Notes: generated by a model not told the origin, from the sequence alone. A stretch of DNA of 64,000 bases from an uncultured bacterium (GCA_903870365.1 CAIQCQ010000034.1:2665-66664); one strand, 5' to 3'. Numbered from the stretch's first letter, positions 2,223 through 38,895 are shown. A program made the numbers and translations.

Positions 2223-2342
2223 CTTTCATAATTTCGCCAAGATCGCTTATAAAATTTAAAAAAGTGAGGAGGCGTACTTAGCAGTACGATGACGAGGATT
2301 TTTAAATTTTAGAAGATGAGATTGGTGAAATTTGGAAGTTTC
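2223..2342. repeat. Repeat-C copy 1
   Basis: See copy 2; it abuts the 3' end of the FKBP gene. Confidence 0.8.
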
Positions 2343-2345
2343 CAG

Positions 2346-2819
2346 CTATTTTTGGACACTTACAAGCTCAACTTGAAAAACCAATGTAGACCCTCCAGGA
2401 ATGGGGCCGTAGTCGGTTGGGCCATACCCCAACTCCGGCGGTACAGTCAATATACGTGTTCCACCCACCTTCATCCCAATCAAACCCTGATCCCATCCAG
2501 AAATTACTTTTCCTGCACCAAGCACAAAAGTAAATGGTACACCTCGAGCAATAGAACTATCAAATACTTTTCCATCTGTAAATGCACCGACATAATTGAC
2601 CGTAAGCGTCTCGCCCGGAGCAGCCACATCACCGGTACCAAGGACAGTATCCTGAACAACAACTTGTGGAGTGGTTGATGCTACGACGACAGTCTCACCG
2701 CCTGGCAACATACCTGTTCTAAAGATAGACACGAGTAATCCACCAAAGACAAAGAAAAAACCAACAACGACAATACCAACGACCACTGCTATTTTTTCAT
2801 TTCTATTCAAAGTTTTCAT
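2346..2819 (-). CDS. FKBP-type peptidyl-prolyl cis-trans isomerase, membrane-anchored
   Basis: FKBP domain (GETLTVNYVGAFTDGKVFDSS...GVPFTFVLGAGKVISGWDQGLIGMKVGGTRIL); N-terminal TM helix; start taken at the second Met (MKTLNR); ORF track extends to 2852. Confidence 0.8.
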   Translation of the reverse strand: MKTLNRNEKIAVVVGIVVVGFFFVFGGLLVSIFRTGMLPGGETVVVASTTPQVVVQDTVLGTGDVAAPGETLTVNYVGAFTDGKVFDSSIARGVPFTFVLGAGKVISGWDQGLIGMKVGGTRILTVPPELGYGPTDYGPIPGGSTLVFQVELVSVQK

Positions 2820-2834
2820 ATAAAATATTTTAAT

Positions 2835-2866
2835 TCTGGATTGAGGGCTCAAGCCCGGAATGACAG
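2835..2866 (+). repeat. REP-like unit (TCTGGATTG-AGGGCTCAAGCCC-GGAATGACAG)
   Basis: Same flanks, different hairpin. Confidence 0.6.
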
Positions 2867-3067
2867 AAAGGGTTGGTTAATACAAATGTTTTTCGAGAGC
2901 CTATTGACAATCCCATGTCTGAATCAAACTCCAAAATTTTGATCAAAAATCACACAATTCGAGGAAACATATCGAGATACGTTGACGAGAAGTGGACGAT
3001 TTGTAGCCGAAATTTTGGAATTTGAGCAGACAAGCATTAGCCTAAGTCTTGTAAGATGTGTTGAGAT

Positions 3068-3859
3068 TTGAATAGGCTCTCAGTAATTATATATGATATA
3101 GTACAAGACACAAGTAACAAAAAATATATGGATGAACACAATCTTAATGTACCTGGTAAAGATTTACCTGTCCGACCGCTGACAAAAGCCGAACTCCAAG
3201 AAACTGCACAGGAACGTGTGCACCTTATTTCAAAAGAATTTACCGAGGGATTTGAGTTTTTAGAGGATTATCCAAAATCTGTCACTTTTTTTGGTAGTGC
3301 TCGCAATGTAGAGGGTGATCCGATGTATGAAAAAGCAAGAAGTTTGGCAAAACGTATTACAACAGAACTCAAATACTCTATCGTTTCAGGTGGCGGTCCA
3401 GGTATCATGGAGGGTGCAAACCGCGGAGCCTTTGAAAATGCTGGTGAGTCTGTTGGTTTAACTATTGAATTGCCTGACAAAGGCCAAGCAACAAACCCAT
3501 ACATCAATAAAGGTGTTGATTTTTACTATTTCTTTGTTCGTAAAGTCTGTCTTGCATTTTCTGCCGAAGCCTATATCTTTTTCCCTGGTGGTTTTGGCAC
3601 CTTTGACGAAATGTTTGAGATCCTGACACTGGTGCAAACACACAAAATCGAACGTATACCCATTATCCTCGTTGGTAGTGAATTTTGGAGTGCGCTCGAC
3701 ACTCTGATGAAAAAAGAATTGCTTGGTCGAGGATTGATCGACCCAGAAGATACATCTCTCTATACTATTACAGACGACGAGAACGAGATCATAAATATTA
3801 TCAAAAACGCACCGGTCAGAAATGGCGAAGAGTTCAAAGGGCAAAAGTATGCGGGGTAA
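3068..3859 (+). CDS. LOG family protein (Rossmann-fold nucleotide-binding, TIGR00730-like)
   Basis: Motifs GGGPGIMEGANRGA and PGGFGTFDE; true start may be the Met at 3127. Confidence 0.75.
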   Translation: MNRLSVIIYDIVQDTSNKKYMDEHNLNVPGKDLPVRPLTKAELQETAQERVHLISKEFTEGFEFLEDYPKSVTFFGSARNVEGDPMYEKARSLAKRITTELKYSIVSGGGPGIMEGANRGAFENAGESVGLTIELPDKGQATNPYINKGVDFYYFFVRKVCLAFSAEAYIFFPGGFGTFDEMFEILTLVQTHKIERIPIILVGSEFWSALDTLMKKELLGRGLIDPEDTSLYTITDDENEIINIIKNAPVRNGEEFKGQKYAG

Positions 3860-3923
3860 TTTTGTACACATCTAATTGTGGTAAAAACTTTTTCTCTGGT
3901 ATCATTCTCCTGGAGATGATCTT

Positions 3924-4151
3924 TTGACTACACGCTACGCAGTAAACTACTGTTCACATGGTGAACACGAAAATGAGTTGGTAAGTTTCAAGGTTCGTAC
4001 TCTACTTGGCCGAACCACGAAAACTTGTCCAACCTGTCAGTATCGAAAACGAGAACGTCGTCGTGAACAAAAAAGAGCGCTTGTAGCTTCACTTATGCTC
4101 TTAATAACAACACTTGTCGCTTTCACACGACGAGTACTCGCAACCACGTAA
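3924..4151 (+). CDS. small hypothetical protein, zinc-ribbon-like (CxxH..CPTC) plus C-terminal TM
   Basis: 75-aa ORF with TTG start, followed by a strong terminator hairpin at 4158-4185. Confidence 0.25.
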   Translation: MTTRYAVNYCSHGEHENELVSFKVRTLLGRTTKTCPTCQYRKRERRREQKRALVASLMLLITTLVAFTRRVLATT

Positions 4152-4157
4152 CACAAA

Positions 4158-4185
4158 AGGAGACCTCCGGGTCTCCTTTGCTTTA
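4158..4185 (+). terminator. rho-independent terminator (GGAGACC-tccg-GGTCTCC followed by a T-run)
   Basis: Perfect 7-bp stem followed by TTTGCTTT. Confidence 0.6.
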
Positions 4186-4227
4186 TAATTACTTATGAAA
4201 ACCGTATATTTTCACTTCCCCTCTGTC

Positions 4228-4252
4228 TTTCCCGCGAAAGCGGGAATTCAGG
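4228..4252 (-). repeat. REP-like unit (GNRA-loop variant TTCCCGC-GAAA-GCGGGAA)
   Basis: Partner of the 4318 unit; BIME-like inverted pair. Confidence 0.7.
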
Positions 4253-4317
4253 ATCTTAATTTTAAATTTCGAATTTCTAATTTCGAAACAATGATTGAAT
4301 GTTTTAATTTTTGAAAC

Positions 4318-4346
4318 ACTGGATTCCCGTCTGCACGGGAATGACG
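4318..4346 (+). repeat. REP-like unit CTGGATTCC-CGTCTGCACGG-GAATGACGG (stem ATTCCCG / CGGGAAT)
   Basis: Identical copy at 35326-35355; inverted partner unit at 4228-4252. Confidence 0.8.
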
Positions 4347-4353
4347 GGGAGGG

Positions 4354-4575
4354 TTACTTATCCGCCAGCTCTTTTTTGATCTCAGTAAACTCATTCTCTA
4401 TCTCTTTGAGGCGTTCCTTTGAATCCTTTATCAACACTGCACCTTCTTTAATTAGTTCCAGACCCTTCTCGACATCAATCTCTTCTTGATTTTCAAACCA
4501 CGAAACAATTTTTCCCAACTGACTGAGTTTCTCACTGAGATCACCTTTATTTTCTTTGTGTGTTTCTTTTGTCAT
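4354..4575 (-). CDS. xseB: exodeoxyribonuclease VII small subunit
   Basis: 73-aa coiled-coil protein (EKLSQLGKIVSWFENQEE...LELIKEGAVLIK) immediately downstream of xseA. Confidence 0.8.
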   Translation of the reverse strand: MTKETHKENKGDLSEKLSQLGKIVSWFENQEEIDVEKGLELIKEGAVLIKDSKERLKEIENEFTEIKKELADK

Positions 4576-4673
4576 CCCGTTAAAGTTTTAATGAAATTTT
4601 TTAATAATTTAATAGTCTCTGTGATATGCAAATACGTCTACAATAACAATCCTATAGATACAACTCTCATGGG
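4576..4673 (-). mobile_element. MITE-like 98-nt element, copy 1 (TIR CCCGTTARAGTTTTA), inserted at the xseB start codon
   Basis: 15-bp terminal inverted repeats; flanked by direct repeat ATGA(T/C); one of 5 copies. Confidence 0.7.
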
Positions 4674-4674
4674 A

Positions 4675-6012
4675 TCATGTACGTTTCGCATCTATCGTAC
4701 CATCTGCGACCAAAATCTGAAAATCCTCCCCCTCCTTTACATCACTCACCGAACGAACAACCTTGCCACCAGCCCGTGTAATAGACCAGCCAAGCTTGAG
4801 CTGCCGTTCTGGTGAGCGAGCTTCTAGTATTTTTTCATAATTCTCAATCTTATTCTGTACTGTCGTAACCAGTCGGGACGCTGCGGTAAACATGAGCCTG
4901 GTGTCCCGCTCTATATCCACCGTATAGCGAGCAATACTATGAGCGATTCTTTCTTCTGCACGACTCATGTACTGAAAATAATAATTAAACTTTTCAAAAA
5001 TGAGTCGAAAACTTTTTTCCATAATTTGTTCACCTTCTTCAAGCAGATAGATGCTGTCTCGCAGTGCATGTTCAAACGTAGACAATATACTTTGTTCGGC
5101 CAGCCTGACTTGCGATACAGCCTCGCGAAAACCAGCCGACAAAAGATTTGCCACCGCAGTTGGGGTAGAAACATTTTTATCTGAGACCATTCCCACCAGT
5201 GAAATGTCTTTATCATGACCAATACCAGTCAGGACTGGTGCGGGAAACGTGGCCACCGCTCGGACAAGCATCTCATTGTTGAATGCTTGAAATGATTCGA
5301 GCGAACCACCTCCACGCATCATGACCAGGACATCAACTTTTTTTGTGGCGAGTGTTTTAACTGCAGCCAGCAAATCTTTGATCGCTGCATCGCCCTCCAC
5401 TTTTGAATCAACAAAAATAATTTCAAACCCACATTTACCAATATTAGACAAAAAGTCGTTTATAACTGCACCAGATTTGGAAGTAATGACACCGATAGTA
5501 TGTGGGAACTCTGGGATTGGTCGTTTACGAGCCTCATCAAATAAACCTTCGGCTGATAACTTGGCTTTTAATTTCTCATAGGCTATTTGTAATGCACCCT
5601 CACCCACCAGTTCAATACTTTCCACCTGCAGACTAATAGTACCGTTTGGTTTGTATATACTCGGGTAAGCCGTGACAATAACCTCGAGACCGTCCTGTAG
5701 ATCAACTCCTGAAAGACTAAAATCCCGTTTCCACATAAAACAATTCAAGGTACTCTGGTCTACTTTATCCTTAATAGAATAATACAAATAACTCCGACCT
5801 TCGTACATTTTGACACCAGTCACTTCACCAATGATGCGAGCTTTTTGAGATTTCAGATTTTTATTAACCGAGTCAACATATTCTGACACCGACACAATCT
5901 CCTGCCCTACGACTGTCGTAGGCAGTTTCGATGAGAGTGGTTTTTTCACACTCCGTGTGGAAATATCTTTCTCGTTCTGTATGTTATTTTCAATTTCATC
6001 AAATAAATTCAT
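4675..6012 (-). CDS. xseA: exodeoxyribonuclease VII large subunit
   Basis: 445 aa; N-terminal OB-fold; catalytic core motifs MMRGGGSLESFQAFNNE and GIGHDKD. Confidence 0.9.
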   Translation of the reverse strand: MNLFDEIENNIQNEKDISTRSVKKPLSSKLPTTVVGQEIVSVSEYVDSVNKNLKSQKARIIGEVTGVKMYEGRSYLYYSIKDKVDQSTLNCFMWKRDFSLSGVDLQDGLEVIVTAYPSIYKPNGTISLQVESIELVGEGALQIAYEKLKAKLSAEGLFDEARKRPIPEFPHTIGVITSKSGAVINDFLSNIGKCGFEIIFVDSKVEGDAAIKDLLAAVKTLATKKVDVLVMMRGGGSLESFQAFNNEMLVRAVATFPAPVLTGIGHDKDISLVGMVSDKNVSTPTAVANLLSAGFREAVSQVRLAEQSILSTFEHALRDSIYLLEEGEQIMEKSFRLIFEKFNYYFQYMSRAEERIAHSIARYTVDIERDTRLMFTAASRLVTTVQNKIENYEKILEARSPERQLKLGWSITRAGGKVVRSVSDVKEGEDFQILVADGTIDAKRT

Positions 6013-6102
6013 AATGAAATTATACTTTGAAACGGTAGTTCAAAATACTTGACTTTTTTGTATTAAGTGTGTTATTTTTCACCATAGGTAAGGAGACCCG
6101 AT

Positions 6103-6324
6103 ATGGAAGCACCATCAGAAAAATGGACCGAGGATGAAAGAAAAAGTGTTGTTTTAGCGGTTACAGAAATAATGCTCCAGAGCATAAGAGAACCTCAGCG
6201 ATCCATTGTGGGAGCATCGGAAGTGCAAGAATGGGCAGAAACAATAGATTTTGTTCTTACAAAAGATGCCCATTTTCTTCAGGTAAACCGGGGAAGAATT
6301 TTGAGAACAATTGGAATCAGATAA
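6103..6324 (+). CDS. hypothetical protein
   Basis: 73-aa ORF followed by a long hairpin plus T-run at 6326-6372. Confidence 0.3.
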   Translation: MEAPSEKWTEDERKSVVLAVTEIMLQSIREPQRSIVGASEVQEWAETIDFVLTKDAHFLQVNRGRILRTIGIR

Positions 6325-6393
6325 CCCCCGCCACGTCGTCACAAAAAGTCCGACGGGCGGGCTTTTTGTTTATACAGATTCTCCTTCTCGCGC

Positions 6394-6418
6394 CATTCCC
6401 GTGCAGACGGGAATCCAG
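6394..6418 (-). repeat. REP-like unit (CATTCCCGTGCAGACGGGAATCCAG)
   Basis: Same family. Confidence 0.8.
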
Positions 6419-6445
6419 TGTATCCAATCATACTTATTATTACAT

Positions 6446-6511
6446 CCTGGATCCCCGCCTTCGCGAGGATGACAAGAATGGGTGGATTCCAGGTCAAGAC
6501 GGGAATGACAG
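6446..6511 (+). repeat. two degenerate REP-like units
   Basis: CCTGGATCCCCGCCTTCGCGAGGATGAC and TGGATTCCAGGTCAAGACGGGAATGACAG. Confidence 0.6.
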
Positions 6512-6560
6512 AGAAGGAAAAGTTTCCACTTTCTAACTTGCACCTTTCAAAACTTTTAAA

Positions 6561-6941
6561 CTACTTCACTTCCAAATCAAGACACACACTATTCAAACAA
6601 TACCGTTTACCCGTTGGAGTTGGTCCATCAGTAAATACATGTCCTAAATGGCTCCTACACTTTGAACACGTGATTTCAGTCCGATGCATTCCCATTTCAT
6701 CATCACTTTTTTCTATGACACTTCCGGCAATTGCTTGGTCAAAACTCGGCCAACCAGTACCCGAATCAAACTTGGCGTCTGACATGAACAAGCCTTGTCC
6801 ACAAACCTTGCACTTATACATACCATCACGATCATCATGCAGTAGCTTGCCGCTAAATGGGGCTTCGGTCCCCTTTTCACGGAGAACTTTGTATTCTTCT
6901 GGTGTTAATTTTGCTTTTAACTCTTGTTCGTTTATGTCCAT
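6561..6941 (-). CDS. msrB: peptide methionine sulfoxide reductase MsrB
   Basis: SelR motifs CxxC...CxxC and [12 protein letters not shown]. Confidence 0.9.
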
Positions 6942-6947
6942 ATTGTA

Positions 6948-7521: not shown

Positions 7522-7710
7522 AATTTCGAATTTTGAATTTTGAATTTCCAATTTTGACATTGTTTTTTACGAACACAGTGAGTTAGAACTACAAGAAGTA
7601 CCCTTGTGGTAGAAACAAATTAAAATTTCTGAATGATTGGAAACAGCATCTAATTCAAAATTAAATCATTGAAACATTGTTTCAAAATTGGAAATTCGAA
7701 ATTTTACTTT
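7522..7710. repeat. AT-rich intergenic palindromic block: ~40-bp imperfect inverted arms of (AATTTYGAA)-type repeats around a GAGTTAGAACTACAAGAAGTACCCTTGTGG hairpin
   Basis: Arms 7522-7566 vs 7667-7710; the central 30-mer recurs at 13921-13955. Confidence 0.6.
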
Positions 7711-10047: not shown

Positions 10048-11826
10048 ATGAAAAATATCTTTGATGCAGTAAAAAAATATGCTCTCGCTCACAAAATAAT
10101 CAGCACGATTGTTATCTTGGTGGTGATATACGGCGGATACAAAATATATGTGAGCGCTCACACCACCACAGGAGTGACTCGCTATGTCCTTGGTACCGTA
10201 CAAAAAGGCCTTGTTATTTCTAGTCTGTCAGAAAGTGGTCAAGTATCAACCACAAACCAGATTGATGTTGCATCAAAAGTTTCTGGGAATATTACGTGGG
10301 TTGGAGTCAAAGTTGGTGACACTGTCTATGCTGGCCAAGCACTTGCAAGTATTGATAATACAACAGCCAAACAAGCCGTAACTGATGCTGAAGCTTCTCT
10401 TGCCGGAGCCCAATTGCAATATCAACAAGATCAAGCATCCGCACCAATCAACTATCAAAATACACTCACTGCTTTAACAACCGCTCAAGACAACCTTGCT
10501 ACAGAATACAACAATACATTTAATGATCTTTCTAATACATATCTGGATCTCCCGACGGTGATCAATGGTGCACAAAATATTTTATACGGTTTTGATTTGA
10601 GTCCAAGTAAAACACAGGCCAATGCTGACGTATTGATCAATACATTTAACAATGATCTTCAGACGACCGTACGAACGTCGGCAACACAAGCAGAAAGTGA
10701 TTATACAACAGCTCGGTCTTCATATGACCCCGCTCTTGCCCAATATCAAATTACTCAAAGAAATTCTGCAACCAGTACCATCGAAACACTCTTGACGACA
10801 TCAATTCAAACGACTACAAATATTGCGCAAGCACTACAAAGTGAACTTAACTTCCTCGCTCTTGTCAGTGATGTGGCTACCCAAAACAATATTCATATAC
10901 CGACCACAATTACCACACTGCAAACAAATGCAAGAAATTATCTCACCACAACAAACAACGATCTCAGTCTCTTACTTTCAGAAAAGAAAGCCTTACAATC
11001 AGCAAAACAAACAATTACAACTGATCAACAAAACATCGTACTTCTCCAGGTTGGCAACCCAACTCAAGACAACCCCATCACGCTCCAAATTGAAAAAAAT
11101 AACTTGGCCAAACAACAACAAGATTTAGATAATCTCAAAACTACACTCGGATACTATACGATCACCGCTCCTTTTGCCGGCACCATATCTGCTGTGCCTG
11201 CAAAAGTTGGTCTCAATGCGGGAACCATTGCCACTGTGGTCACCAACCAACAAATTGCTCAACTTTCTGTCAACGAAGTAGACGCAGCAAAAATTGCTCT
11301 CGGAGACAAAGCGGTTATTACTTTTGATGCGTTGAGTGACTTGAGTATTACGGGAACTATTAATGAAATTGATCCTGTCGGTACCGTCAGTCAAGGTGTG
11401 GTGAGCTATATCGTCAAAATAACGTTTGATACCCAAGACCCACGTGTCAAACCAGGCATGACAGTCAACGCTTCGATCCAAACAGCAGCACATCCAGATG
11501 TACTGTACGTACCAAGCAGTGCAGTCAAAACAACTGCTGGTGCAAGTTATGTTCAAGCTTTTACTCCCCCACTCGTTGATACCAGTAATGGTGCCGGCAT
11601 GACATCAGCAACACCACCAGTACAAACACCAGTTACTGTTGGTATATCAAACAGCACCAGTGTTGAAATCCTTTCTGGAGTGACCGAAGGACAACAAATT
11701 GTCACACGAACTACGACTGGCACAACAGCCACAAAAACAACAACTACTCCAACTGCCACATCACTCCTTGGGGGTGGTGCCGGAGGACGTCCTGGAGCAA
11801 CTGGTGGGGTAAGAATTGGAGGATAA
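10048..11826 (+). CDS. efflux transporter periplasmic adaptor (HlyD/MacA family) with an extended Q/T/N-rich coiled coil and a Gly-rich tail
   Basis: N-terminal TM; biotinyl-lipoyl-like and beta-barrel segments (ITAPFAGTISAV...GTINEIDPVG); upstream of the MacB-type ABC pair. Confidence 0.7.
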   Translation: MKNIFDAVKKYALAHKIISTIVILVVIYGGYKIYVSAHTTTGVTRYVLGTVQKGLVISSLSESGQVSTTNQIDVASKVSGNITWVGVKVGDTVYAGQALASIDNTTAKQAVTDAEASLAGAQLQYQQDQASAPINYQNTLTALTTAQDNLATEYNNTFNDLSNTYLDLPTVINGAQNILYGFDLSPSKTQANADVLINTFNNDLQTTVRTSATQAESDYTTARSSYDPALAQYQITQRNSATSTIETLLTTSIQTTTNIAQALQSELNFLALVSDVATQNNIHIPTTITTLQTNARNYLTTTNNDLSLLLSEKKALQSAKQTITTDQQNIVLLQVGNPTQDNPITLQIEKNNLAKQQQDLDNLKTTLGYYTITAPFAGTISAVPAKVGLNAGTIATVVTNQQIAQLSVNEVDAAKIALGDKAVITFDALSDLSITGTINEIDPVGTVSQGVVSYIVKITFDTQDPRVKPGMTVNASIQTAAHPDVLYVPSSAVKTTAGASYVQAFTPPLVDTSNGAGMTSATPPVQTPVTVGISNSTSVEILSGVTEGQQIVTRTTTGTTATKTTTTPTATSLLGGGAGGRPGATGGVRIGG

Positions 11827-13877: not shown

Positions 13878-14147
13878 TGCTTTGGTCTTTTTGTCCGATT
13901 TCATCTTCCGACTTTGTTTTCTTACGAGCAAAGCGAGTTAGAAACACAAGAAGTACCCTTGTGGTGAAATTTTAAAAATGCTCGTCACCGTACGACAGGT
14001 ACGGCTTCTCACATTTTTAAATTTTCCCATTATGAATACATAATGAGTAAGTGTTCCCTTATAAGCGAACTCGAACAAAAATCCTCAAAGTGTGGTTAAC
14101 CTTTAGAAATTAGAAATTTTATTTAAAAAAATAATTTAATTACACAT

Positions 14148-14552
14148 ATGAATAAAACAACTGGCATCATATTAGGTTTGGTTCTCATAATTCTCTCTTT
14201 CTACGGTGGTATGAAATACGATCAGAGTAAGGTCGCTTCCACACAAACAGCTCGCACAGGTCAATTTGCTGGACGTGCTGGTGGTGCACGTGGTGGAGTT
14301 TTTGGTGGTGGTGCCATGGGTCAAATTCTTTCCAAAGACGCTCAGAGTATTACCATTGCCCTCATGAGCACATCATCTACTGTCTCCACAGGTTCTGCTA
14401 TTGTCTACGTATCTGCCAGTACCACCATCGCTAAAACAACTACCATACCATTATCTGCTTTGAATATTGGTGACACTGTTATTGTTGCAGGATCAAAGGA
14501 TGCGAGTGGGGCTATCAGTGCAACCTCCATCCAAATTCGCCCTTTACGTTAG
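14148..14552 (+). CDS. hypothetical membrane-anchored Gly-rich protein
   Basis: 134 aa; signal/TM then GRAGGARGGVFGGGAMGQ. Confidence 0.4.
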   Translation: MNKTTGIILGLVLIILSFYGGMKYDQSKVASTQTARTGQFAGRAGGARGGVFGGGAMGQILSKDAQSITIALMSTSSTVSTGSAIVYVSASTTIAKTTTIPLSALNIGDTVIVAGSKDASGAISATSIQIRPLR

Positions 14553-14741
14553 TAAGATAAACAACAGAACTTCCAAATCTGGCGCATTTCGTTGTCAGAC
14601 TTCAAAAAATATTCCTCACCGTACGTCTAGTACGGCTCGAAACATTTTTATCGTCTTCCTAGAACTGCATCCAGATTTGAAAGTTGAGCTTAACCTAACC
14701 TCTAGTTTTGATACAATCATGCAAAATGCTATGATTTTGTA

Positions 14742-15515
14742 ATGGAAATAGACAAACACAAAAAGCAGTTCGGCAATCAAGCTGAAAATTACACAAAATA
14801 TAGAAAGCCTTATACAGAGAAGTTGTATGAGCTTCTTTTTTCGCTTGCGCCACAAGGACAAAAGAAAATCCTTGATATTGCTTGTGGAACAGGAAAATCA
14901 ACAGAACCATTAGTAAAAGACGTTGTTGAAGTATTTGGCTGTGATCACGATCCGCTAATGATTACTGAGGCTCAAAAGCAGGCTGAAATAAAAAATCTTT
15001 CCATTCACTACAGTGTTGCTGATGTTGAACATTTACCATTTGCTGATGCAAGTTTTGATGTTGTCACTGTTGGTACTGCTTTTCACTGGTTTGTAAATGA
15101 AAAATCTGCAACAGAGATTAAGCGTGTTTTGAAAGATAAAGGCTTGTTATTTGTATTTTGGACATTAACCGTAAAAGATGTACCAGAAGAAGACTCCCTC
15201 CCGAGAAGTTTTTTCCAGTCGTTTAATTGGGAAAAAGTCCCACAAAAATTGAGAGATTTGAATTATATTTCCACTTTCTTTAAAGAACAGGGTTTTGAGA
15301 ATATTGAAACATCACGAATTTCAGTGAGTCACAATGATACTGTTGAGGAGCAAGTTGGACTCATGAAGACTGCTTCCAGTTATGAGCTTCTTTCAGAAAG
15401 CGAAAAAGAACGATTTGTAAAAGAGATGACTGAAACTTTGACTAAAAAATTAGGTACCAGACTATACTTTACTTTTGAAGAGGAAGTACAGGTATGTTAC
15501 GGATTTAAAATTTAA
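14742..15515 (+). CDS. class I SAM-dependent methyltransferase
   Basis: Motif I ILDIACGTGKST; post-I DVVE.FGCD. Confidence 0.8.
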   Translation: MEIDKHKKQFGNQAENYTKYRKPYTEKLYELLFSLAPQGQKKILDIACGTGKSTEPLVKDVVEVFGCDHDPLMITEAQKQAEIKNLSIHYSVADVEHLPFADASFDVVTVGTAFHWFVNEKSATEIKRVLKDKGLLFVFWTLTVKDVPEEDSLPRSFFQSFNWEKVPQKLRDLNYISTFFKEQGFENIETSRISVSHNDTVEEQVGLMKTASSYELLSESEKERFVKEMTETLTKKLGTRLYFTFEEEVQVCYGFKI

Positions 15516-16846: not shown

Positions 16847-17272
16847 TTAATTTTGTATATTCGTATTAACCTGTTCTTGAACCAAACTCATGTTTTGTTT
16901 TCCTTGTAACCAGATTGTATCAAGAGACCAATCATCTCTGCCATTCAAAAATATAGAGACTGCAGACAGTGCCAAACCAACATCACGCACTGCCACGTCC
17001 CCATACCCCACCGTATAGGCAATATCAAACAAATGAAGAGCAATGATCAGTGCTGTGTACCGAGTGGCTATACCTGCAATCAGAGCGGTGCCAACGACAA
17101 GTTCAAATGCACCATTGAGATATATAAGTACTGTTGGACTAAGGCCAAGCATAGTAGTCCATGTAGGGAGCAAAAACACCCACATCTCTGGATGCAATAT
17201 CTGTTCCACACCAAACCACAGCACAACTAAGGCAATACCGACTCGCACAACGACAGGGGCGTATTTTTTCAT
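16847..17272 (-). CDS. DoxX family membrane protein
   Basis: 141 aa, 4 TM helices, DoxX-like. Confidence 0.7.
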   Translation of the reverse strand: MKKYAPVVVRVGIALVVLWFGVEQILHPEMWVFLLPTWTTMLGLSPTVLIYLNGAFELVVGTALIAGIATRYTALIIALHLFDIAYTVGYGDVAVRDVGLALSAVSIFLNGRDDWSLDTIWLQGKQNMSLVQEQVNTNIQN

Positions 17273-17369
17273 CCCGTTAGAGTTTTAATAAGAATTTTTT
17301 AATAATTAAACAGTCTACAGAGTAAATATACCTGTACTATATTAACCCCTTAGATAAAACTCTAACGGG
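17273..17369 (-). mobile_element. MITE-like 98-nt element, copy 2, inserted at the doxX start codon
   Basis: TIR CCCGTTAGAGTTTTA / TAAAACTCTAACGGG; flanking direct repeat ATGA. Confidence 0.7.
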
Positions 17370-17429
17370 ATCATATGAATATATTATACGCAATATACGT
17401 ATGTAAGTACATTTTGTATGCACACACAT

Positions 17430-18314: not shown

Positions 18315-18353
18315 ATGAACGGAAATGCAAATTCCTATTGTTTAATTAGAAAA

Positions 18354-18508
18354 ACTTTCATAATTTGATTGAGATCGCGTATAAGGGCACACTTACTCAT
18401 TATGTATTCATAATGGGAAATTTTCGGAAGATTCGTAGACGTATTAGACATACGGCGGAGAATATTTTTTAGAATTTAGACGATGAGATCGGTCAAATTT
18501 GGAAGTTT
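18354..18508. repeat. Repeat-C copy 3 (divergent, with an insertion)
   Basis: Shares CTTTCATAATTT...CGATGAGATCGGTCAAATTTGGAAGTT with 2223-2342 and 38776-38895. Confidence 0.6.
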
Positions 18509-18515: not shown

Positions 18516-19025
18516 TTACGCTGTTGCCTGAGTTTTAATTTTGGAAACCGCATCATTAAACCCTCGTGGTGTCAGTGATGAACCAGATACTTTAGTAAGA
18601 TTCAATGTACTGATATCCTGACCGACAACATACGCTTTATATCCTCCAATAAACATTGCTTGATAGCGGGCTGATGTTCCATCACCAGCTCCAGAGGTTA
18701 CTGTAGCGTCTGTCACAATATCATTTTTCAAAACCAACGTGACGTGTACTGCATCATTACCACCAGGTGATGAATAATATCCATCCGCAGAATATGTACC
18801 ATCTTTATATTTTGATGTTGGTGCGACATCTGCTGGTGTCGTAGAAGAAGCTGGTGTTGTCACGGGGGCAGTATTAGTCGTATCTACTGGTGCCACTGCT
18901 ACAGGCTGACTGTTTGACTGGTTATTTTTTACTGCAAAAATAACTGCTCCAGCAATAACAACGACCCCAACAATACCTGCAATGAGACTTGTGTTTGATT
19001 TTTTTATTGGTTGAATAGGATCCAT
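18516..19025 (-). CDS. FMN-binding domain protein (probable ApbE flavinylation substrate), membrane-anchored
   Basis: N-terminal TM; FMN_bind-like C-terminus with VSGSSLT (cf. SGATLT flavinylation motif); adjacent to apbE. Confidence 0.55.
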   Translation of the reverse strand: MDPIQPIKKSNTSLIAGIVGVVVIAGAVIFAVKNNQSNSQPVAVAPVDTTNTAPVTTPASSTTPADVAPTSKYKDGTYSADGYYSSPGGNDAVHVTLVLKNDIVTDATVTSGAGDGTSARYQAMFIGGYKAYVVGQDISTLNLTKVSGSSLTPRGFNDAVSKIKTQATA

Positions 19026-19226
19026 ATGTGAAAAATTAAATTATAATCGACTATTATAGCATACGTATATACCCGAGCAAAAAGATTCAAATACCAAGAT
19101 ACTCCACCATTTCATATTCACTTCTGTCTTTATAGACTTTAGATTTTTCACCTCAGGAGTACCTGATGTATAAGTGTTCATTTCATTCCGTTATGGACTT
19201 TTAATTGTGGTGCTATACTTATTCCC

Positions 19227-26112: not shown

Positions 26113-26187
26113 GCCTCACCTCTATATAGATACAAACATATGTATAAATAAAAATCAAGCGCTGGCCGTCTGGGAGAGTTGCCTAAA

Positions 26188-26400
26188 TTTTATTTTGACT
26201 AGCATTGAATGAAGTGGAAAAGTACTCTTTTCCACTTCTGAGATGTGACGTCAAAACAAACGACAGTTTGTTTTGCGAATAACCCACTGCGTGAGCGTGG
26301 GGATGAAACAAAAGTTTCCTGAAGCTTTGCTTCAGGATGAATTGGCTTCGCCAATTCATCTCAGGAATACCCCGGGCATGAGCCCGCGGGTCGTTTATTT
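26188..26400. repeat. Repeat-E copy A (213 bp, multi-hairpin)
   Basis: About 95% identical to the reverse complement of 50301-50514. Confidence 0.85.
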
Positions 26401-30961: not shown

Positions 30962-31090
30962 ATCCGTTAGAGTAACTTAATTCATCCAGTAAGTCTAACG
31001 TGTAAATTTCTACCTCAGGAGTACCTGATGTGTAAGTGTTCCCTTATAATTAACCTAATTACTAATTTCTAAAGGAGACCGTTTAAAGAA

Positions 31091-31477: not shown

Positions 31478-32335
31478 TCATCTCACTTTGTAATATACTT
31501 TATTACCGTATCGTAGATCAATATAATCGACAAGTAACTCTCCATCTTTTTCTGGCACAAGATTTGCTGTCTGTAACAACTTTTGCAGATTAGATGCCGT
31601 TTCAGCGAGTGGAGACTTGGCATCAAAAATAATATAGCCACCACCGTACAAATACATTTCAAAATCATCCTGTGTAGTCGCTACTATATATAGTGGGGTG
31701 ATATTGAGGGCCTTCACGGCTTCAACAAATTGCGACAATTGTCCAAAGGTATCTGATGATGACAAATATGATGAACCAATAGCTGATTCAAATGGCACCA
31801 ACCCATAATATTTAAAATAAGCATCACCAGAAAAGTCTGGGGCTTGAGAAAAAACAAAACCTGTCTTGTCGAGGAAATAACACTGTGGGGCTATAGTCGG
31901 GTCGGTACTCGAAGCAATTTGTTCCGGAGAGAGATTGCACCACAAAGCAGATGGTTGGCGTTCGGTCACAGTCACGCCGATAGTATGATAATTAACCAAA
32001 CTCACAGAGACAGTCTGTATGCGTGGAAATTGCTGTTGGAGAAAAATAGTCAGGCCTTTTCGTGGGTACAATAGCGCATTTTTCTTGCTCAAGACATATA
32101 TATAGTTACCCGAAATATACTGCGAGACAGACTGTTTAATTTGGTCAGGTGACAAGATGACTGTACCAGTCACCTGAACCATATCAATGGATACTTTTGA
32201 CCAGTGAGTTAGGCCAGCAAAGCCAGCAATGAGTATCACGAGTACCACACACCAGAAAGAAACATGTTGAATAAGACGCTTTTTCTTTTTCTCCAAATAA
32301 TCAGGGTTATGATACGTTTGTGATTTTTGAATCAT
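31478..32335 (-). CDS. putative cell division protein FtsQ/DivIB-like (TM plus POTRA-like)
   Basis: N-terminal TM and overall size/architecture; weak. Confidence 0.35.
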   Translation of the reverse strand: MIQKSQTYHNPDYLEKKKKRLIQHVSFWCVVLVILIAGFAGLTHWSKVSIDMVQVTGTVILSPDQIKQSVSQYISGNYIYVLSKKNALLYPRKGLTIFLQQQFPRIQTVSVSLVNYHTIGVTVTERQPSALWCNLSPEQIASSTDPTIAPQCYFLDKTGFVFSQAPDFSGDAYFKYYGLVPFESAIGSSYLSSSDTFGQLSQFVEAVKALNITPLYIVATTQDDFEMYLYGGGYIIFDAKSPLAETASNLQKLLQTANLVPEKDGELLVDYIDLRYGNKVYYKVR

Positions 32336-32433
32336 CCCGTTAGAGTTTTATTGAGGGTCTTCTAATAATCAAATAGTCTACGTGCCAAGAATATATCCAT
32401 ATCATAACAAACTATAGCTAAAACTCTAACGGG
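32336..32433 (-). mobile_element. MITE-like 98-nt element, copy 3, inserted at the start codon of the ftsQ-like gene
   Basis: Perfect 15-bp TIRs; 5-bp direct repeat ATGAT on both sides. Confidence 0.75.
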
Positions 32434-32507
32434 ATCATCTGCTTATTGTATCAAAAATCTCTACTTTCGTAGAGATTTTTGTACTTTCTTCTTCGTAATT
32501 CTTACTT

Positions 32508-33841: not shown

Positions 33842-33877
33842 AAAAGAAAATCGGCTAGCGTCCAAAGACAGCTAGCC
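33842..33877 (-). promoter_or_regulatory. terminator-type hairpin in the serS 5' leader (candidate attenuator / T-box-like leader)
   Basis: CGGCTAGC-loop-GCTAGCCG followed by ATTTTCTTTT on the minus strand, ~35 nt upstream of the serS ATG; no upstream co-directional gene. Confidence 0.4.
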
Positions 33878-34001
33878 GGAGGAGTTGGTCTCTTGAGCAA
33901 AGCTCATTGTAGGCGTCCCACAAACGCCTCGTTCTTCGGTCTCCATAGACCTACACCAAACGTTGCTCATATAGTAATAAAAGCTGTATTATTAGTCAAA
34001 C

Positions 34002-34889: not shown

Positions 34890-34985
34890 TTACTAATTGA
34901 CCTAATTATTCTAATTTCTAAAGAATTTTGATATACTTGACATATCAATAAAAATACAATACATTATTCTCTAGGAGAAAACTTT

Positions 34986-35180
34986 GTGCAAACAATTGTA
35001 GTCAAACGACATCCAAACGGAAGGGTTAAGACAATCCATATGCAATCAGAAAACCCTGACGAACACACTACCCTTTCGGAAATTCACGTGCAGTTAGCAA
35101 ATCGTTGCTTCGGAGATCATCCCAGCATCAAGTCTACAGATTTTTCTCAGGGAAAAATCACACTTGAGATCGACGCTTGA
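34986..35180 (+). CDS. hypothetical small protein
   Basis: 64-aa ORF followed by a terminator hairpin at 35219-35250. Confidence 0.35.
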   Translation: MQTIVVKRHPNGRVKTIHMQSENPDEHTTLSEIHVQLANRCFGDHPSIKSTDFSQGKITLEIDA

Positions 35181-35270
35181 AAATACTTTGCCACTAATCA
35201 ATCCCGCCACCACGGCAACGGAAATCCGTTCGCTTCGGTGTGCGGATTTTTTGTATTAATTAATTTTTCT

Positions 35271-35298
35271 GTCATTCCCGCGAAAGCGGGGATCCAGG
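35271..35298 (-). repeat. REP-like unit (GTCATTCCCGCGAAAGCGGGGATCCAGG)
   Basis: Same family. Confidence 0.8.
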
Positions 35299-35325
35299 AT
35301 GTAAAGATGAATATGATTGGATACA

Positions 35326-35355
35326 CTGGATTCCCGTCTGCACGGGAATGACGGG
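35326..35355 (+). repeat. REP-like unit, identical to the 4318 copy
   Basis: Same family. Confidence 0.8.
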
Positions 35356-35461
35356 AAAAAATATTTAGAAATTAGAAATTAGTAATTAGGAATTTTTTAA
35401 ATAAAAAAATATCACTTATTTGCAAAAAGTTTAAAATACGGTAATACTAGACGAATATGAT

Positions 35462-35559
35462 CCCGTTAGAGTTTTTATACGACTCAGTACGGGCAAATAA
35501 CGTTTTTCATAAAATGAACAACTTGTAAGCACATACTTTAATCAAAAAACTCTAACGGG
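35462..35559 (+). mobile_element. MITE-like 98-nt element, copy 5 (divergent interior), inserted at the topA start codon
   Basis: TIR CCCGTTAGAGTTTTT...AAAAACTCTAACGGG; flanks ATGAT / ATGAA. Confidence 0.7.
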
Positions 35560-37818: not shown

Positions 37819-37839
37819 ATTTTTTGCAGGAGGAATTTT

Positions 37840-37998
37840 ATGGCATGTCAAAGTTGCGGTGGAAATCAATTTGATAAAAATGGTAACTGTGTACGATGTC
37901 CACTTGGACCCATAGTTGGTCCAGGACTCCGAGCTGATCAGTGGGATATAGATGAATTTGTCCCTGACATCCGAGAACTCTTTGACGCAATAGACTAA
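37840..37998 (+). CDS. small zinc-ribbon protein (52 aa)
   Basis: Unlisted ORF MACQSCGGNQFDKNGNCVRCPLGP...; GGAGG SD 7 nt upstream; terminator at 38001-38038. Confidence 0.5.
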   Translation: MACQSCGGNQFDKNGNCVRCPLGPIVGPGLRADQWDIDEFVPDIRELFDAID

Positions 37999-38000
37999 CA

Positions 38001-38038
38001 AAAAGCCACGATGCAAATCGTGGCTTTGTATTTTTGTT
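38001..38038 (+). terminator. rho-independent terminator
   Basis: GCCACGAT-gcaaa-TCGTGGC followed by TTTGTATTTTT. Confidence 0.7.
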
Positions 38039-38054
38039 AATTTCTGAAACGGTT

Positions 38055-38115
38055 GATTCAGGATTCCTAGCAGCAGAGGAAAGCTCACTACGGGACAAGC
38101 AAAATTGGAATGAAA
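38055..38115 (+). repeat. REP-like unit with a long central hairpin
   Basis: Paralog of 2123-2185. Confidence 0.7.
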
Positions 38116-38128
38116 TAAACACAAATAC

Positions 38129-38698
38129 TTGACAACTTTTTTAGAATATGTAAATATCTCCAGCGGAGAACAGCACATGCTCTATAAAAACTGGAAAGAA
38201 ATCTGCAAGATCGAAAATGCATACTTCCTTCTTGCAGTAGCACTCGCAACTGATATCAAATTCCTTGGCGACCTCGCCATTGGATTTCCTCACCTATTCA
38301 CCGACATCAAACCGGAACACCCGGGACCGTTTCCACTCTCCTTCCTCCGGAAGATTGCAGATTCTGCTCAGGATATTCATAGTCTAGATGAAATTTTTCT
38401 TGAATATGGACTTCCGGCAATTCCGTACGCTCACAGGGAGTCATTTTACTTCCGCACAATGGAAGAAAGGGATGAAAAGCCTGTACTTTGGATGGGTAGT
38501 GCCATGTCTCAAGAAGAGTACAACGTGTGGTCAGAAAAATACACAGCGGCATATCCTCTTTTCCCGTATACCCTGGAAACACTTACGATCGACGATGTTA
38601 ATTACTACGTCGGTTATGTCAATACAAACGGTCCAGACGTTGATGAGCTCAAGGATATGTACCTCTACCCTACCGACCTCGTCGACGTGAATACGTAG
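38129..38698 (+). CDS. hypothetical protein
   Basis: 189-aa ORF; terminator at 38722-38752. Confidence 0.45.
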   Translation: MTTFLEYVNISSGEQHMLYKNWKEICKIENAYFLLAVALATDIKFLGDLAIGFPHLFTDIKPEHPGPFPLSFLRKIADSAQDIHSLDEIFLEYGLPAIPYAHRESFYFRTMEERDEKPVLWMGSAMSQEEYNVWSEKYTAAYPLFPYTLETLTIDDVNYYVGYVNTNGPDVDELKDMYLYPTDLVDVNT

Positions 38699-38775
38699 AC
38701 CGGATCAGTTCACAGACGAACAACGGCCCCGAAATCGGGGCCGTTTATTTTTATACAAAATTAGTTTGCACCAGA

Positions 38776-38895
38776 ACTTTCACAATTTCGCCAAGGTCGC
38801 TTATAAAATATGAAAAGGGACCGGAGACGTAGTTAGCACTACGATGAGGACCATTTTTATATTTTAGAAGATGAGATTGGTGAAATTTGGAAGTT
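38776..38895. repeat. Repeat-C copy 2
   Basis: About 85% identical to 2223-2342; hairpin CGTAGT-tagc-ACTACG covaries with copy 1 (CGTACT-tagc-AGTACG). Confidence 0.8.

Follow-up and report, generated by a model that had tools for sequence, protein, structure and literature searches.

REPINs, the REP doublets that are mobilised by RAYTs, occupy extragenic positions downstream of genes, in old and diverged copies that do not stem from recent bursts. In attC sites, which lie at or over the stop codon of a cassette, the recombining fold is formed by the strand antisense to the gene. Both resemble the element described here, Repeat-C. REPINs are, like Repeat-C, long hairpins (~100 nt) that keep their ends conserved and evolve by compensatory change; they are non-autonomous, and an enzyme encoded in single copy is believed to process them in trans as single-stranded DNA (PMC3337134). 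The attC sites, for example the Vibrio cholerae repeats, share with Repeat-C the AAC and GTT triplets, an imperfect palindrome of similar length and a variable interior, and consist of R and L boxes plus 20-100 nt of variable terminal structure (PMC4889954). The ERIC elements (IRU, RU-1) of enterobacteria and Yersinia are, like Repeat-C, imperfect palindromes (~127 bp) that pair end to end, occupy intergenic or intercistronic positions and are co-transcribed with their neighbours; their effect on the transcript varies with orientation (PMC2229807; PMC3049150). Pneumococcal BOX elements, which are also small modular interspersed repeats at gene 3' ends, supply the stop codon in 36 genes, and RUP elements insert at TA and have TIRs in common with IS630-Spn1 (PMC2229807; PMC3049150). 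The Correia (NEMIS) elements of Neisseria share with Repeat-C TIRs, a comparable length (100-155 bp) and co-transcription; they have TA ends, and RNase III acts on the hairpins in their RNA (PMC2229807).

Repeat-C has no sequence similarity to ERIC/IRU, is found in another phylum and is far more closely tied to the stop codon; its selected fold is antisense, and an RNase E-type effect is known for ERIC only. BOX elements are assembled from modules (boxA, boxB, boxC); Repeat-C, in contrast, forms one hairpin in which tips and apex are conserved. Unlike the RUP and IS630-Spn1 pair, no parent IS with Repeat-C-type TIRs was found in the window or the fetched DNA. The tips, (TAR)AACTTTCA, carry neither the GTAG nor the CGTC tag of REPINs and are not small palindromes. 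Correia sequences are unrelated and contain IHF and promoter motifs, and stop-codon anchoring and an antisense pairing bias, both traits of Repeat-C, are not described for them.

The window, a 64-kb stretch of DNA from an uncultured, small-genome bacterium of the Patescibacteria, contains four full copies of Repeat-C and one chimeric fragment, located at 2.2, 14.0, 14.6, 18.4 and 38.8 kb in both orientations; positions 2223-38895 are the range of these dispersed copies and not one single feature. Copies 1 and 2, both of subfamily A and on the plus strand, have their cores at 2221-2340 and 38775-38895 (2218-2343 including three paired flanking nt on each side, and 38772-38898 with flanks). They are 86% identical, and the covariance model scores them at 105 and 105.2 bits on the plus strand versus 39.7 and 41.7 bits on the minus strand. 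The copies listed in a preliminary description of this DNA were all recovered at or near the positions given there, including a divergent one with an insertion (copy 3, 18353-18507, plus strand; 33.8 bits for 18390-18507), in which a 34-nt hairpin module is nested at 18385-18418. A fragment in reverse orientation, previously placed at ~14030-14080, does exist but is larger (copy 5, 13943-14079, minus strand, 42.2 bits), and the fourth full copy, a member of subfamily C, had been overlooked (copy 4, 14568-14685, minus strand, 106.2 versus 53.8 bits). Shuffled sequence is expected to contain 0 matches to either arm of Repeat-C, be it the 3' arm (26 nt) or the 5' arm (30 nt). A possible degenerate sixth copy (AAACTCCAAAATTTTG...CGAAATTTTGGAATTT, 2926-3023, strand not assigned) gives a weak score (26.8 bits, E=0.005); it lies between the divergent genes for FKBP and at 3068-3859, and carries no weight in the argument.

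Copy 5 retains the inner arms of Repeat-C, the nested module and the apical hairpin, and is 75% complementary to 18364-18476 over 113 nt. Both of its tips have been replaced, the 3' tip now being the module ACCACAAGGGTACTTCTTGTG, as at 7578/13935. The small hairpin module nested in copies 3 and 5 also occurs free-standing at 31003-31049 (plus strand), with a weaker copy at 19141-19187. The two short modules reported as shared between families are present, nested in copy 3 or chimeric in copy 5, and the mosaicism of Repeat-C consists of this nested insertion and this chimeric fragment. It had been likened to a BIME system; because REP units in alternating orientation and the GTAG tag are both absent, and each copy is one 120-nt hairpin, BIMEs are a loose analogy only.

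The Repeat-C unit is ~120 nt long, or ~126 nt when the paired TAR...YTA tips are counted, with copies ranging from 118 to 126 nt and a GC content of 0.28-0.50. The entire ~120 nt form a single imperfect hairpin (-50 to -57 kcal/mol, with z scores of roughly -8 to -10). An internal hairpin had been recognised before, and the change from CGTACT-tagc-AGTACG in copy 1 to CGTAGT-tagc-ACTACG in copy 2 is a genuine compensatory swap; the apical stem does covary, but the pairing spans the whole element and not this stem alone. The near-invariant tips (AACTTTCA-n-AATYTGG ... CCARATTTGGAAGTT) have AAC and GTT as outermost near-invariant triplets, ends that were enforced by the search pattern for 46 copies; beyond these triplets come 1-3 further nt, variable but paired. 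Conserved purine-rich loop sequence is located on both sides of the 6-7 bp apical stem, and purine-rich internal loops with tandem G·A are likewise conserved. The middle stems define at least three subfamilies with different sequence, in which pairing is always kept.

Relatives of Repeat-C were sought with an end-anchored pattern, 46 of the 120 matches being true members, and with the covariance model, for which 66 elements in 451 kb of related DNA passed E<=1e-8. Among these relatives, at least 66, the conserved pairing that had been asked of additional copies is evident: 96.1% of cells are paired, compared with 80.5% in shuffles and at most 48% with slid partners. The covariation test proposed earlier gave changes on both sides in 30 of the 33 modelled pairs (20/33 in the MAFFT-only alignment). 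Wobbles on the element strand are almost exclusively G·T (221, versus 9 A·C), and because of this ratio the fold under selection is that of the strand antisense to the abutting gene. Pairing in Repeat-C is kept by compensatory change, and on one strand only. The folding energies show the same asymmetry. With RNA parameters, the window copies reach -50.6, -52.8, -57.2 and -37 kcal/mol on the element strand and -34.5, -41.3, -35.1 and -20 kcal/mol on the opposite strand (-57.2 versus -35.1 for copy 4), and the asymmetry is likewise present with DNA parameters. In 75 of 76 copies the element strand gives the better fold, with means of -46.5 versus -32.9 kcal/mol. For the gene that ends in TAA or TAG within a few nt of the GGAAGTT end, the selected strand is the template. 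Therefore, the mRNA holds a weaker, C·A-mismatched version of the hairpin, which is part of the 3' UTR of the gene or of an intercistronic spacer.

The genes that abut the plus-strand copies are on the minus strand, as had been noted, and their stops are 5, 0 and 8 nt away: an FKBP-type prolyl isomerase gene next to copy 1 (2346-2852; PF00254, 1.3e-31), the ParB gene next to copy 2 (38896-39945), and an ORF of 169 aa without Pfam match next to copy 3 (18516-19025). The TAG stop of ParB (38896-38898, read as CTA) adjoins copy 2 and pairs with its left flank. Copy 4 lies 15 nt past the stop of a DUF5666-like gene on the plus strand (14148-14552), just upstream of promoter-like sites for 14742-15515. 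A canonical G+C-rich terminator hairpin with a T-tail is located on the plus strand at 38722-38745, 29 nt beyond copy 2, which is placed between the ParB stop and this hairpin.

This arrangement bears on the suggestion, made in the preliminary description, that Repeat-C is a 3'-UTR structure at which transcripts end or are processed; more widely, such a gene-sense hairpin could also hold off 3' exonucleases, and REP, BOX and ERIC would be its counterparts. Sense transcription of Repeat-C is certain inside operons or upstream of a terminator, the sense strand folds well too (-20 to -41 kcal/mol, z down to -8), the element sits at the stop codon, and unrelated long hairpins fill the spot after ParB in other lineages. 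A terminator function is not supported, however. The T-run noted on the gene-sense strand is the 3' half of an internal A-run/T-run stem and not a terminator tail; terminator calling, which does detect the neighbouring hairpin at 38722-38745, finds no G+C-rich stem with T-tail in any copy on either strand; and there is no T tract in the flank logos and no U-tail. Some copies are inside operons, as between nusG and rplK in a conserved operon, and several lie between the stop codon and the canonical terminator of the gene itself, where Repeat-C would be redundant as an end-protector. Selection for an mRNA fold also predicts the reverse of the 221:9 wobble ratio and of the strand preference in 75/76 copies. 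We consider a gene-sense role in any of these forms unlikely.

The position of Repeat-C relative to stop codons is strongly polarised. Of 76 copies, 46 have a converging stop -3 to +10 nt away from their GGAAGTT end and 3 have one at the other end; the stops are 29 TAA, 15 TAG and 0 TGA (background 178/82/45). GC skew in the window is uniformly negative, yet the copies flip along with the genes, and Repeat-C orientation therefore tracks gene direction and not replication. The antisense fold could be explained if Repeat-C were a cis-element of benefit to the host, the hairpin RNA of which forms a polar block, or insulator, against antisense transcripts entering the gene, for example from divergent starts at the promoter of the next gene or from a convergent neighbour. 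In the sense version, C·A mismatches near the base of the stem would let transcription pass such a block. Pairing selected on the antisense strand, a T·G at the sixth stem position that 60 of 66 copies keep, the tight fit against the gene end and the tolerance of Repeat-C within operons are all in line with this idea, as are the occupation of identical housekeeping gene ends in distant classes and an orthologous pair in which the element is conserved above the flanking genes. However, the hairpin is followed by only ~4 U and neither strand receives a terminator-like call, several loci already have a bidirectional canonical terminator on the side of the antisense source, the flank logo shows no conserved upstream promoter, and empty orthologous sites are frequent. 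An insulator is improbable on this balance.

The same antisense fold, as in attC bottom strands, invites comparison with an attC-like or Xer-like single-strand site, at which a tyrosine recombinase would act on the folded bottom strand and gene-end segments would be exchanged. Conserved AAC...GTT triplets bound an imperfect palindrome of attC-like length with a few paired variable nt beyond them, the element starts at or overlaps the stop codon, the interior varies while the structure is conserved, and the layout of the base (7 bp - 5 nt - (bulge) - 7 bp) approximates R box - spacer - L box. Against this, the 5-nt 'spacer' (TTTCA/TGGAA) is paired in at least 60 of 66 copies rather than unpaired, the characteristic extrahelical bases are missing, the single bulged base is absent from many copies and lies on the gene-distal arm, and the flanks misfit RYYY/RRRY. 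Copies are not arrayed, with five over 37 kb in both orientations and beside essential genes, which recombination between copies would remove; there is no intI or attI nearby, and no tyrosine recombinase is encoded in the window. We regard such a site as very unlikely.

Nearly all of the relatives are in MAGs labelled Patescibacteria (Saccharibacteria, Zambryskibacteria, Parcubacteria). The genes that host Repeat-C at their 3' end include tuf, nusG, rplK, groEL, gyrA, parB and FKBP, and distant classes carry it at identical gene ends (tuf three times with an identical junction, and nusG, rplK, FKBP and ParB twice each). Several copies can occur in one 8-kb locus, each bound to a gene end; in one such case (L048), three copies in the same orientation lie within secE-nusG-rplK. 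Repeat-C has no match in Rfam, phages, plasmids, viral contigs or the searched literature. No Rfam 15 family reaches its gathering threshold at the elements, and at E<=10 only sub-threshold models of snoRNAs, miRNA precursors and one Staphylococcus sRNA appear (14-20 bits, gathering 39-94). Independent small-RNA genes transcribed from the element strand would be compatible with the strong, strand-specific covariation and with the purine-rich internal loops and their tandem G·A; but the elements have no conserved upstream promoter and no downstream terminator, occur several to a locus, match no Rfam family and are missing from orthologous sites in some genomes, which makes small-RNA genes the remotest of the readings that we considered.

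Orthologous sites are filled, empty or remnant-bearing, and Repeat-C is multi-copy and dispersed. The site after ParB is filled in the window and in locus L124, whereas the P0002 contig and L120 have it empty and L125 has kept a remnant of 25 nt. In the DprA-SerRS spacer, the one clean filled/empty pair, Repeat-C is present in L124 and the site is empty in L125; TA is on each side of the insert versus a single TA in the empty allele, which fits a duplication of TA but for 3 additional nt. TA occurs one nt beyond both tips in 13 of 56 copies (right 25/56, left 16/56; background 9.6% per side). Direct repeats of 2-5 nt or longer were not above chance at Repeat-C, and no consistent target-site duplication was found. 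Paralogous copies within one MAG are 91-93% identical in unrelated flanks; near-identical copies within a genome were not found (maximum about 91%), and because identity across classes is as high as that within genomes there is no sign of a recent burst. A LAGLIDADG ORF and a serine recombinase are all that the window offers in this respect, and a recombinase or transposase flanked by matching ends was not found there. In ~1.4 Mb of fetched DNA, tblastn with approximate queries for RayT and IS200 TnpA, a weak test, gave no Y1/RAYT match. Tip motifs that the scan found unpaired proved to be opposite strands or variant-tip copies of the short elements, and termini of a longer element were not among them.

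The view of Repeat-C as a covarying hairpin that recurs in multiple copies at gene 3' ends stands, and the filled, empty and remnant sites fit the small mobile repeat that was offered as one option for it. Repeat-C has several of the features by which MITEs are defined: it is <200 bp, non-coding and A+T-rich with 4-5 copies in the window, it has terminal inverted repeats of which the 5' and 3' ends pair into a stem-loop, and its orthologous sites are both filled and empty (PMC2229807). Known MITEs also have a similar size, TIRs, an end-to-end hairpin, stop-codon overlap and orientation effects, and they have TA ends, to which the TA near the tips of some Repeat-C copies may correspond (PMC2229807; PMC3049150). 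We hypothesize, with moderate confidence, that Repeat-C is a non-coding, non-autonomous family of interspersed hairpins of the MITE/REPIN kind that is handled as a folded single strand. In this model, an enzyme acting in trans would copy Repeat-C as a folded single strand, most likely ssDNA, comparable to RAYTs and REPINs or IntI and attC, and fresh copies would insert at TA-containing sites. In very compact genomes, insertions would survive only in the few nt past a TAA or TAG stop, which the terminal purine of Repeat-C may be able to regenerate, and only in the orientation that keeps the strong hairpin off the mRNA; Repeat-C itself would not be a terminator. RNase III action on Correia/NEMIS hairpins is a precedent for such selection against a perfect mRNA hairpin. 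A dsDNA DDE transposase targeting TA would not, alone, explain the pairing of one strand.

Some copies nevertheless look constrained, and a host function therefore remains conceivable. One orthologous pair shows 95% identity within the element but 75-84% in the flanks, and element identity above that of the flanks, together with the gene ends shared across distant classes, suggests constraint at the level of the host. Repeat-C could then be more than junk, namely a single-strand-specific element of ancient origin that was domesticated and is kept where core genes end (tuf, nusG, rplK, groEL, parB and others) across Patescibacteria classes, acting on template-strand DNA or antisense RNA, a proposal that we hold only tentatively. 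As such it could be a polar insulator against antisense transcription or an integron-free recombination handle for the exchange of gene ends.

Patescibacteria (CPR) have streamlined genomes of ~1 Mb, in which MITE-type repeats are undescribed in the searched literature. In CPR MAGs, Repeat-C probably accounts for many short 'ORFs' and seeming 3' UTRs, and the covariance model can be used for masking in CPR annotation. Given the antisense-only pairing (221:9), the single-stranded nucleic acid under selection would be either transposition DNA or an antisense RNA. Between classes as far apart as Saccharibacteria and Parcubacteria, Repeat-C is 85-91% identical, which suggests DNA exchange or strong constraint between lineages. 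With one 120-nt element every few kb, placed after the stops of core genes, the density and spread of Repeat-C imply that structured repeats are tolerated by CPR genomes, or put to use, in considerable amounts.

Five copies of Repeat-C, a dispersed hairpin repeat of ~120 nt, were located in the window. The two best, put at about 85% identity in the preliminary description, lie at 2221-2340 (+) and 38775-38895 (+) and are 86% identical; neither arm occurs in shuffled sequence. The third, at 18353-18507 (+), carries the insertion ascribed to it, 34 nt long, at 18385-18418. The reverse fragment reported at ~14030-14080 is present but spans 13943-14079 (-), as a chimeric copy in which both tips (the near-invariant terminal motifs) are replaced, one of them by a module common to 7578-7610. 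The copies already listed are thus real, but a full copy at 14568-14685 (-) had been overlooked, and a covariance model yields a weak candidate for a sixth at 2926-3023 (26.8 bits). A hairpin module of ~35-47 nt is nested in the third and the chimeric copies (18385-18418 and 14018-14064) and stands free at 31003-31049 and 19141-19187; its stem covaries (CATTATG/CATAATG vs CTCAGG/CCTGATG). The second module, ACAAGAAGTACCCTTGTGG, which substitutes one tip of the chimeric copy, lies at 7578-7610 and 13935-13965. Neither module was found in the 172 loci fetched for comparison.

The internal hairpin that had been taken as the structure is only part of it, as the entire ~120 nt forms a single imperfect hairpin. 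Copies 1, 2 and 4 (2221-2340, 38775-38895 and 14568-14685) fold at -50.6, -52.8 and -57.2 kcal/mol (z -8.3 to -9.6), values equalled by none of 200 shuffles. The outermost stem has 8 bp (AACTTTCA/TGGAAGTT; its sixth position is a T·G wobble) and is followed by an optional bulged base and a second stem of 6-7 bp (AATYTGG/CCARATT). Further inward are middle stems broken by small purine loops, tandem G·A among them, then an A-run/T-run stem, a purine-rich loop (..GGAG / TGAC..) and an apical stem of 6-7 bp with a loop of 4-7 nt. The T-run described earlier therefore exists, but as the 3' half of the A/T stem within the element, and the compensatory swap from C-G to G-C between copies 1 and 2 is a real feature of the apical stem. 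A K-turn was dismissed by eye for the internal loops, as the tandem G·A forms a symmetric 2x2 loop without a 3-nt bulge. One to three flanking nucleotides outside the tips also pair, most commonly as TAA...TTA or TAG...CTA: Watson-Crick matches at ±1, ±2 and ±3 number 37, 36 and 26 of 56 (23, 22 and 17 expected), with chance level farther out.

The window derives from a Patescibacteria genome, and the nearest named homologues of its ParB come from Zambryskibacteria, Paceibacterota and Minisyncoccia MAGs; exact-protein look-ups of FKBP and TopA gave no recorded match. The pattern AACTTTCA-N88-118-ATTTGGAAGTT, run over 185,579 species genomes, returned at least 118 stretches, and the taxonomic census drawn from it is accordingly a sample. 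Of the 120 matches listed, 46 are clear homologues that form strong hairpins of 118-124 nt; the rest are chance matches. Among the matches listed, nearly all homologues are in Saccharibacteria, Zambryskibacteria, Parcubacteria, Paceibacterota, Lloydbacteria or 'Patescibacteria group' MAGs, with a few under generic labels and one labelled 'Alphaproteobacteria'. Single MAGs carry several copies. Across 451 kb, a covariance model built on 49 sequences detects 66 elements at E<=1e-8. Roughly 20 of them have variant tips beyond the pattern's reach, and these still pair (for example AAATCCCA/TGGGATTT and GGCTTTCA/TGAAAGCC). In the covariation test, 96.1% of cells are paired in the model-derived alignment, which favours its own structure, against 80.5% in column shuffles (none of 500 as high) and at most 48% with partners slid, where cells are sequences counted and not independent events. 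Changes on both sides occur in 30 of 33 pairs in the model alignment and in 20 of 33 in a structure-blind MAFFT alignment; the invariance of the tips is partly forced by the search pattern. At least three subfamilies exist, with different middle stems and common tips and apex, and several occur together in one genome.

The hairpin is strongly asymmetric between strands. The better-folding strand, hereafter the element strand, reads AACTTTCA...GGAAGTT and is antisense to the abutted gene. RNA energies in the window are -50.6/-52.8/-57.2/-37 on this strand versus -34.5/-41.3/-35.1/-20 on the opposite one, with the same asymmetry under DNA parameters. In total, 75 of 76 copies fold better on the element strand (mean -46.5 vs -32.9), which the covariance model scores at ~105 bits, compared with 40-54 for its complement. 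Over the 33 modelled pairs of 66 elements, G·T wobbles number 221 and A·C 9, and pairs that switch between U-A and C-G pass via U·G and not C·A (columns 18/115: UG 36, CG 14, UA 5), the signature of pairing selected on the element strand. A general strand bias of gene-end hairpins was ruled out, because unrelated hairpins past parB in two other Patescibacteria loci (L172 and L122) are biased oppositely, as was, by reasoning, a mutational bias, since coding- or lagging-strand deamination predicts the opposite strand. The wobble asymmetry conflicts with the sense-strand role in the 3'-UTR that was originally proposed, and we consider such a role unlikely. The main rival to a mobile element is that the antisense strand itself acts, as a polar block to antisense transcription; it agrees with the folding strand, and we regard it as doubtful.

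Repeat-C is anchored at stop codons. In the window, the reported abutment involves genuine genes, encoding FKBP (5 nt from stop to element), ParB (0 nt), a DUF5666 protein (15 nt) and an ORF without Pfam match (8 nt). The stop of a converging ORF (>=80 aa) lies -3 to +10 nt from the GGAAGTT end in 46 of 76 copies and at the other end in 3 of 76. The modal distance is 0 (14 cases), and 8 stops extend 1-2 nt into the tip. A crude gene call gives neighbour layouts of (-,-) 36, (+,-) 13, (-,+) 7 and (+,+) 6, so that the usual order is gene A stop, Repeat-C and same-strand gene B, with Repeat-C antisense to both. Adjacent stops are TAA in 29 cases, TAG in 15 and TGA in none, where long ORFs of the same loci (178/82/45) predict ~6.5 TGA (P ~0.001). 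Stop-codon read-through, recoding or peptide extension was ruled out, as distances from -2 to +9 are all occupied without frame preference. In a separate orthologous pair (L124 20090-20208 and L125 19157-19275; subfamily tips ..TTCAGAG / CTATGGA..), the upstream ORF enters the repeat by 11 nt, and the repeat encodes its last 3-4 codons and TAG stop (F-K-P-R-L-P vs F-K-P-K-T-P before the stop); tips and flanks of this pair have diverged with compensating changes.

The abutted genes are housekeeping genes that recur across classes: EF-Tu (L094, L049 and L001, with an identical junction 2 nt past the stop and three different subfamilies), NusG (L050, L048), L11 (L048, L105), FKBP (window, L002/L022), ParB (window, L124), and GroEL, GyrA, L6 and an RNase III-type dsRBD protein. 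In L048, 3 kb of the secE-nusG-rplK region contain three copies, one each behind rplK, nusG and a third gene. In nine loci (including window copy 2, L001, L117, L002 and L049) a canonical hairpin-plus-T terminator follows just past Repeat-C, so that the repeat separates the gene's own terminator from its stop codon. A simple terminator scan makes no call at any copy; Repeat-C is not an intrinsic terminator, and the terminator reading of the preliminary description is not supported. An independent sRNA gene family is very improbable, because conserved promoters and terminators are lacking. The GC skew of the window is negative throughout while its five copies flip with local gene direction, so for these copies orientation tracks transcription and not replication, and a replication-set orientation of the IS200/IS605 kind was ruled out for the window. 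In a minority of copies, of (+,+) layout, the GGAAGTT end lies 5-12 nt ahead of the ATG of a same-strand gene (GGAAGTTATAAnnnATG; L097 6794-6913, L036 4270-4389, L069 4924-5044, L079 379-499, L016 66-187), where GGAAG may supply the ribosome-binding site.

Comparison of orthologous sites reveals filled, empty and remnant states. ParB orthologues share the C-terminus ...LYSIKNF(S/N)(I/L), followed directly by Repeat-C in the window and in L119. In the syntenic L120 (ParB 69% identical) the stop is followed by 5 nt and a terminator, and in contig P0002 (75% identical) by a 24-nt spacer. In L124 the copy is divergent and overlaps the stop, and only its first ~25 nt are left in L125; L172 and L122 have unrelated long hairpins at the same spot (5109-5206 and ~11086-11234), one with 17-bp inverted ends ATCCAGCACCAGTTTTG and the other a 150-nt hairpin of -81/-90 kcal/mol. 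In Patescibacteria, palindromic elements in general seem to land just past the stop. The DprA-SerRS spacer reads ...CACTAAGTA / G-AAC...GTT-C / TACTACTATGTTAG... in L124 (filled) and ...CACTGAAAGTA / CTATGTTAG... in L125 (empty), a clean insertion with TA on either side and a 3-nt CTA discrepancy. TA occurs one nucleotide beyond both tips in 13 of 56 copies (chance 9.6% per side); direct repeats in 40-nt flanks and positional target-site duplications of 3-5 nt are at background, leaving TA enrichment as the only signal. No empty allele of the Rifle Zambryskibacteria sites was recovered in two metagenome scans.

One Saccharibacteria MAG has two copies that are 91-93% identical with unrelated flanks; identity within genomes peaks at about 91%, and identity between classes equals the within-genome level. 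A Saccharibacteria and a Parcubacteria copy (L002 and L048) are 91% identical at non-orthologous sites, and window copy 2 is 85% identical to a Saccharibacteria copy. Between the orthologous loci L046 and L118, Repeat-C is 95% identical versus 75-84% for flanking DNA. These identities point to constraint on the element. After tuf and nusG, by contrast, it is more diverged than the gene, because subfamilies differ. The window has no transposase or tyrosine recombinase gene, only a large serine recombinase at tRNA-Leu and a LAGLIDADG ORF, and tblastn with approximate queries, a weak test, gave no match to a Y1/RAYT transposase in the fetched DNA.

That recombinase (56180-57820, -) abuts or overlaps tRNA-Leu 56115-56201 beside the LAGLIDADG-like ORF (55488-56138); GC falls to 0.36 across 56-60 kb, and the region may be an element integrated at the tRNA. 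A LOOT RNA (Rfam RF03000) lies at 59197-59316 (-); it matches the model from end to end and scores 90 bits, where the gathering score is 46.4. The window is unusually repeat-rich for a small genome. A second hairpin/TIR family of ~117 nt (4540-4691, 17270-17387, 32333-32451, 50146-50266; fragment 35444-35475), with 17-bp inverted ends ATCCCGTTAGAGTTTTA / TAAAACTCTAACGGGAT, is anchored at start codons, its terminal ...GGGAT abutting the ATG of minus-strand 16847-17272, 31478-32335 and 49321-50148; it mirrors Repeat-C at gene 5' ends. A 224-nt segment of five or six short hairpins (26177-26400 and 50301-50524, inverted, 95% identical; no Rfam match) is possibly a structured RNA or a further mobile module. 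Repeats of 65-100 nt (~80% identical) lie beside tRNAs (40618-40682 / 44544-44608 and 55040-55109 / 63457-63526, adjoining tRNA-Leu 40744, tRNA-Trp 44634 and tRNA-Lys 55207), and spacers with Repeat-C hold more short families, of GATTCCGGATCCC...GGAATGA and CCCGTCTGCACGGGAATG types (2125-2183 / 38055-38113; 4222-4348, 6385-6476, 35268-35359).

We hypothesize, with moderate confidence, that Repeat-C is mobile but non-autonomous, a hairpin element of the MITE/REPIN kind. Its copies are dispersed, with filled, empty or remnant sites, its junctions are TA-rich, and compensatory evolution is confined to one strand. A trans-acting enzyme would act on the folded single strand, with the tips and perhaps also the apex as its recognition sites, because a transposase that binds TIRs in double-stranded DNA would not select whole-length pairing of one strand. 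Insertion at TA would account for the use of TAA and TAG stops and the lack of TGA, and the terminal purine of Repeat-C could restore the stop codon. With spacers of a few dozen nucleotides, the stretch past the stop and before the terminator or next promoter would be nearly the sole harmless landing site. Judged from its position, Repeat-C would be co-transcribed with the host gene in the orientation that leaves the mRNA with the weaker hairpin, the one with C·A mismatches. In the reverse orientation the message would end in an almost perfect RNA duplex of ~55 bp, probably a target of RNase III, and such insertions would be purged by selection. Repeat-C has AAC/GTT triplets, as attC sites do (PMC4889954). 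Location at the stop codon and folding of the bottom strand are further points in common. Against an attC-like recombination site stand the absence of arrays, of an unpaired spacer and of extrahelical bases, and of an integrase gene in the window, and we consider it very improbable.

Every single property of Repeat-C has precedent, which places this putative mobile hairpin among known kinds of element. Bacterial MITEs resemble it in size, TIRs, TA ends and end-to-end hairpin (PMC2229807), BOX repeats supply the stop codon in 36 pneumococcal genes and ERIC effects depend on orientation (PMC3049150), and REPINs are described as hairpin elements mobilised in trans (PMC3337134). Rfam gave no match at gathering score or at E<=10, BLAST against plasmids and phages gave none, and none of 44 end-pattern matches in viral contigs was hairpin-like or family-like. 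No description turned up in the literature, whether searched by subject or with the literal sequence. To the extent of the libraries covered, and with the census being a sample, Repeat-C is new as a family and new for Patescibacteria. Its strict stop-codon anchoring and one-sided pairing are unusual, and the signs of constraint mean that it may also serve a function in the host.
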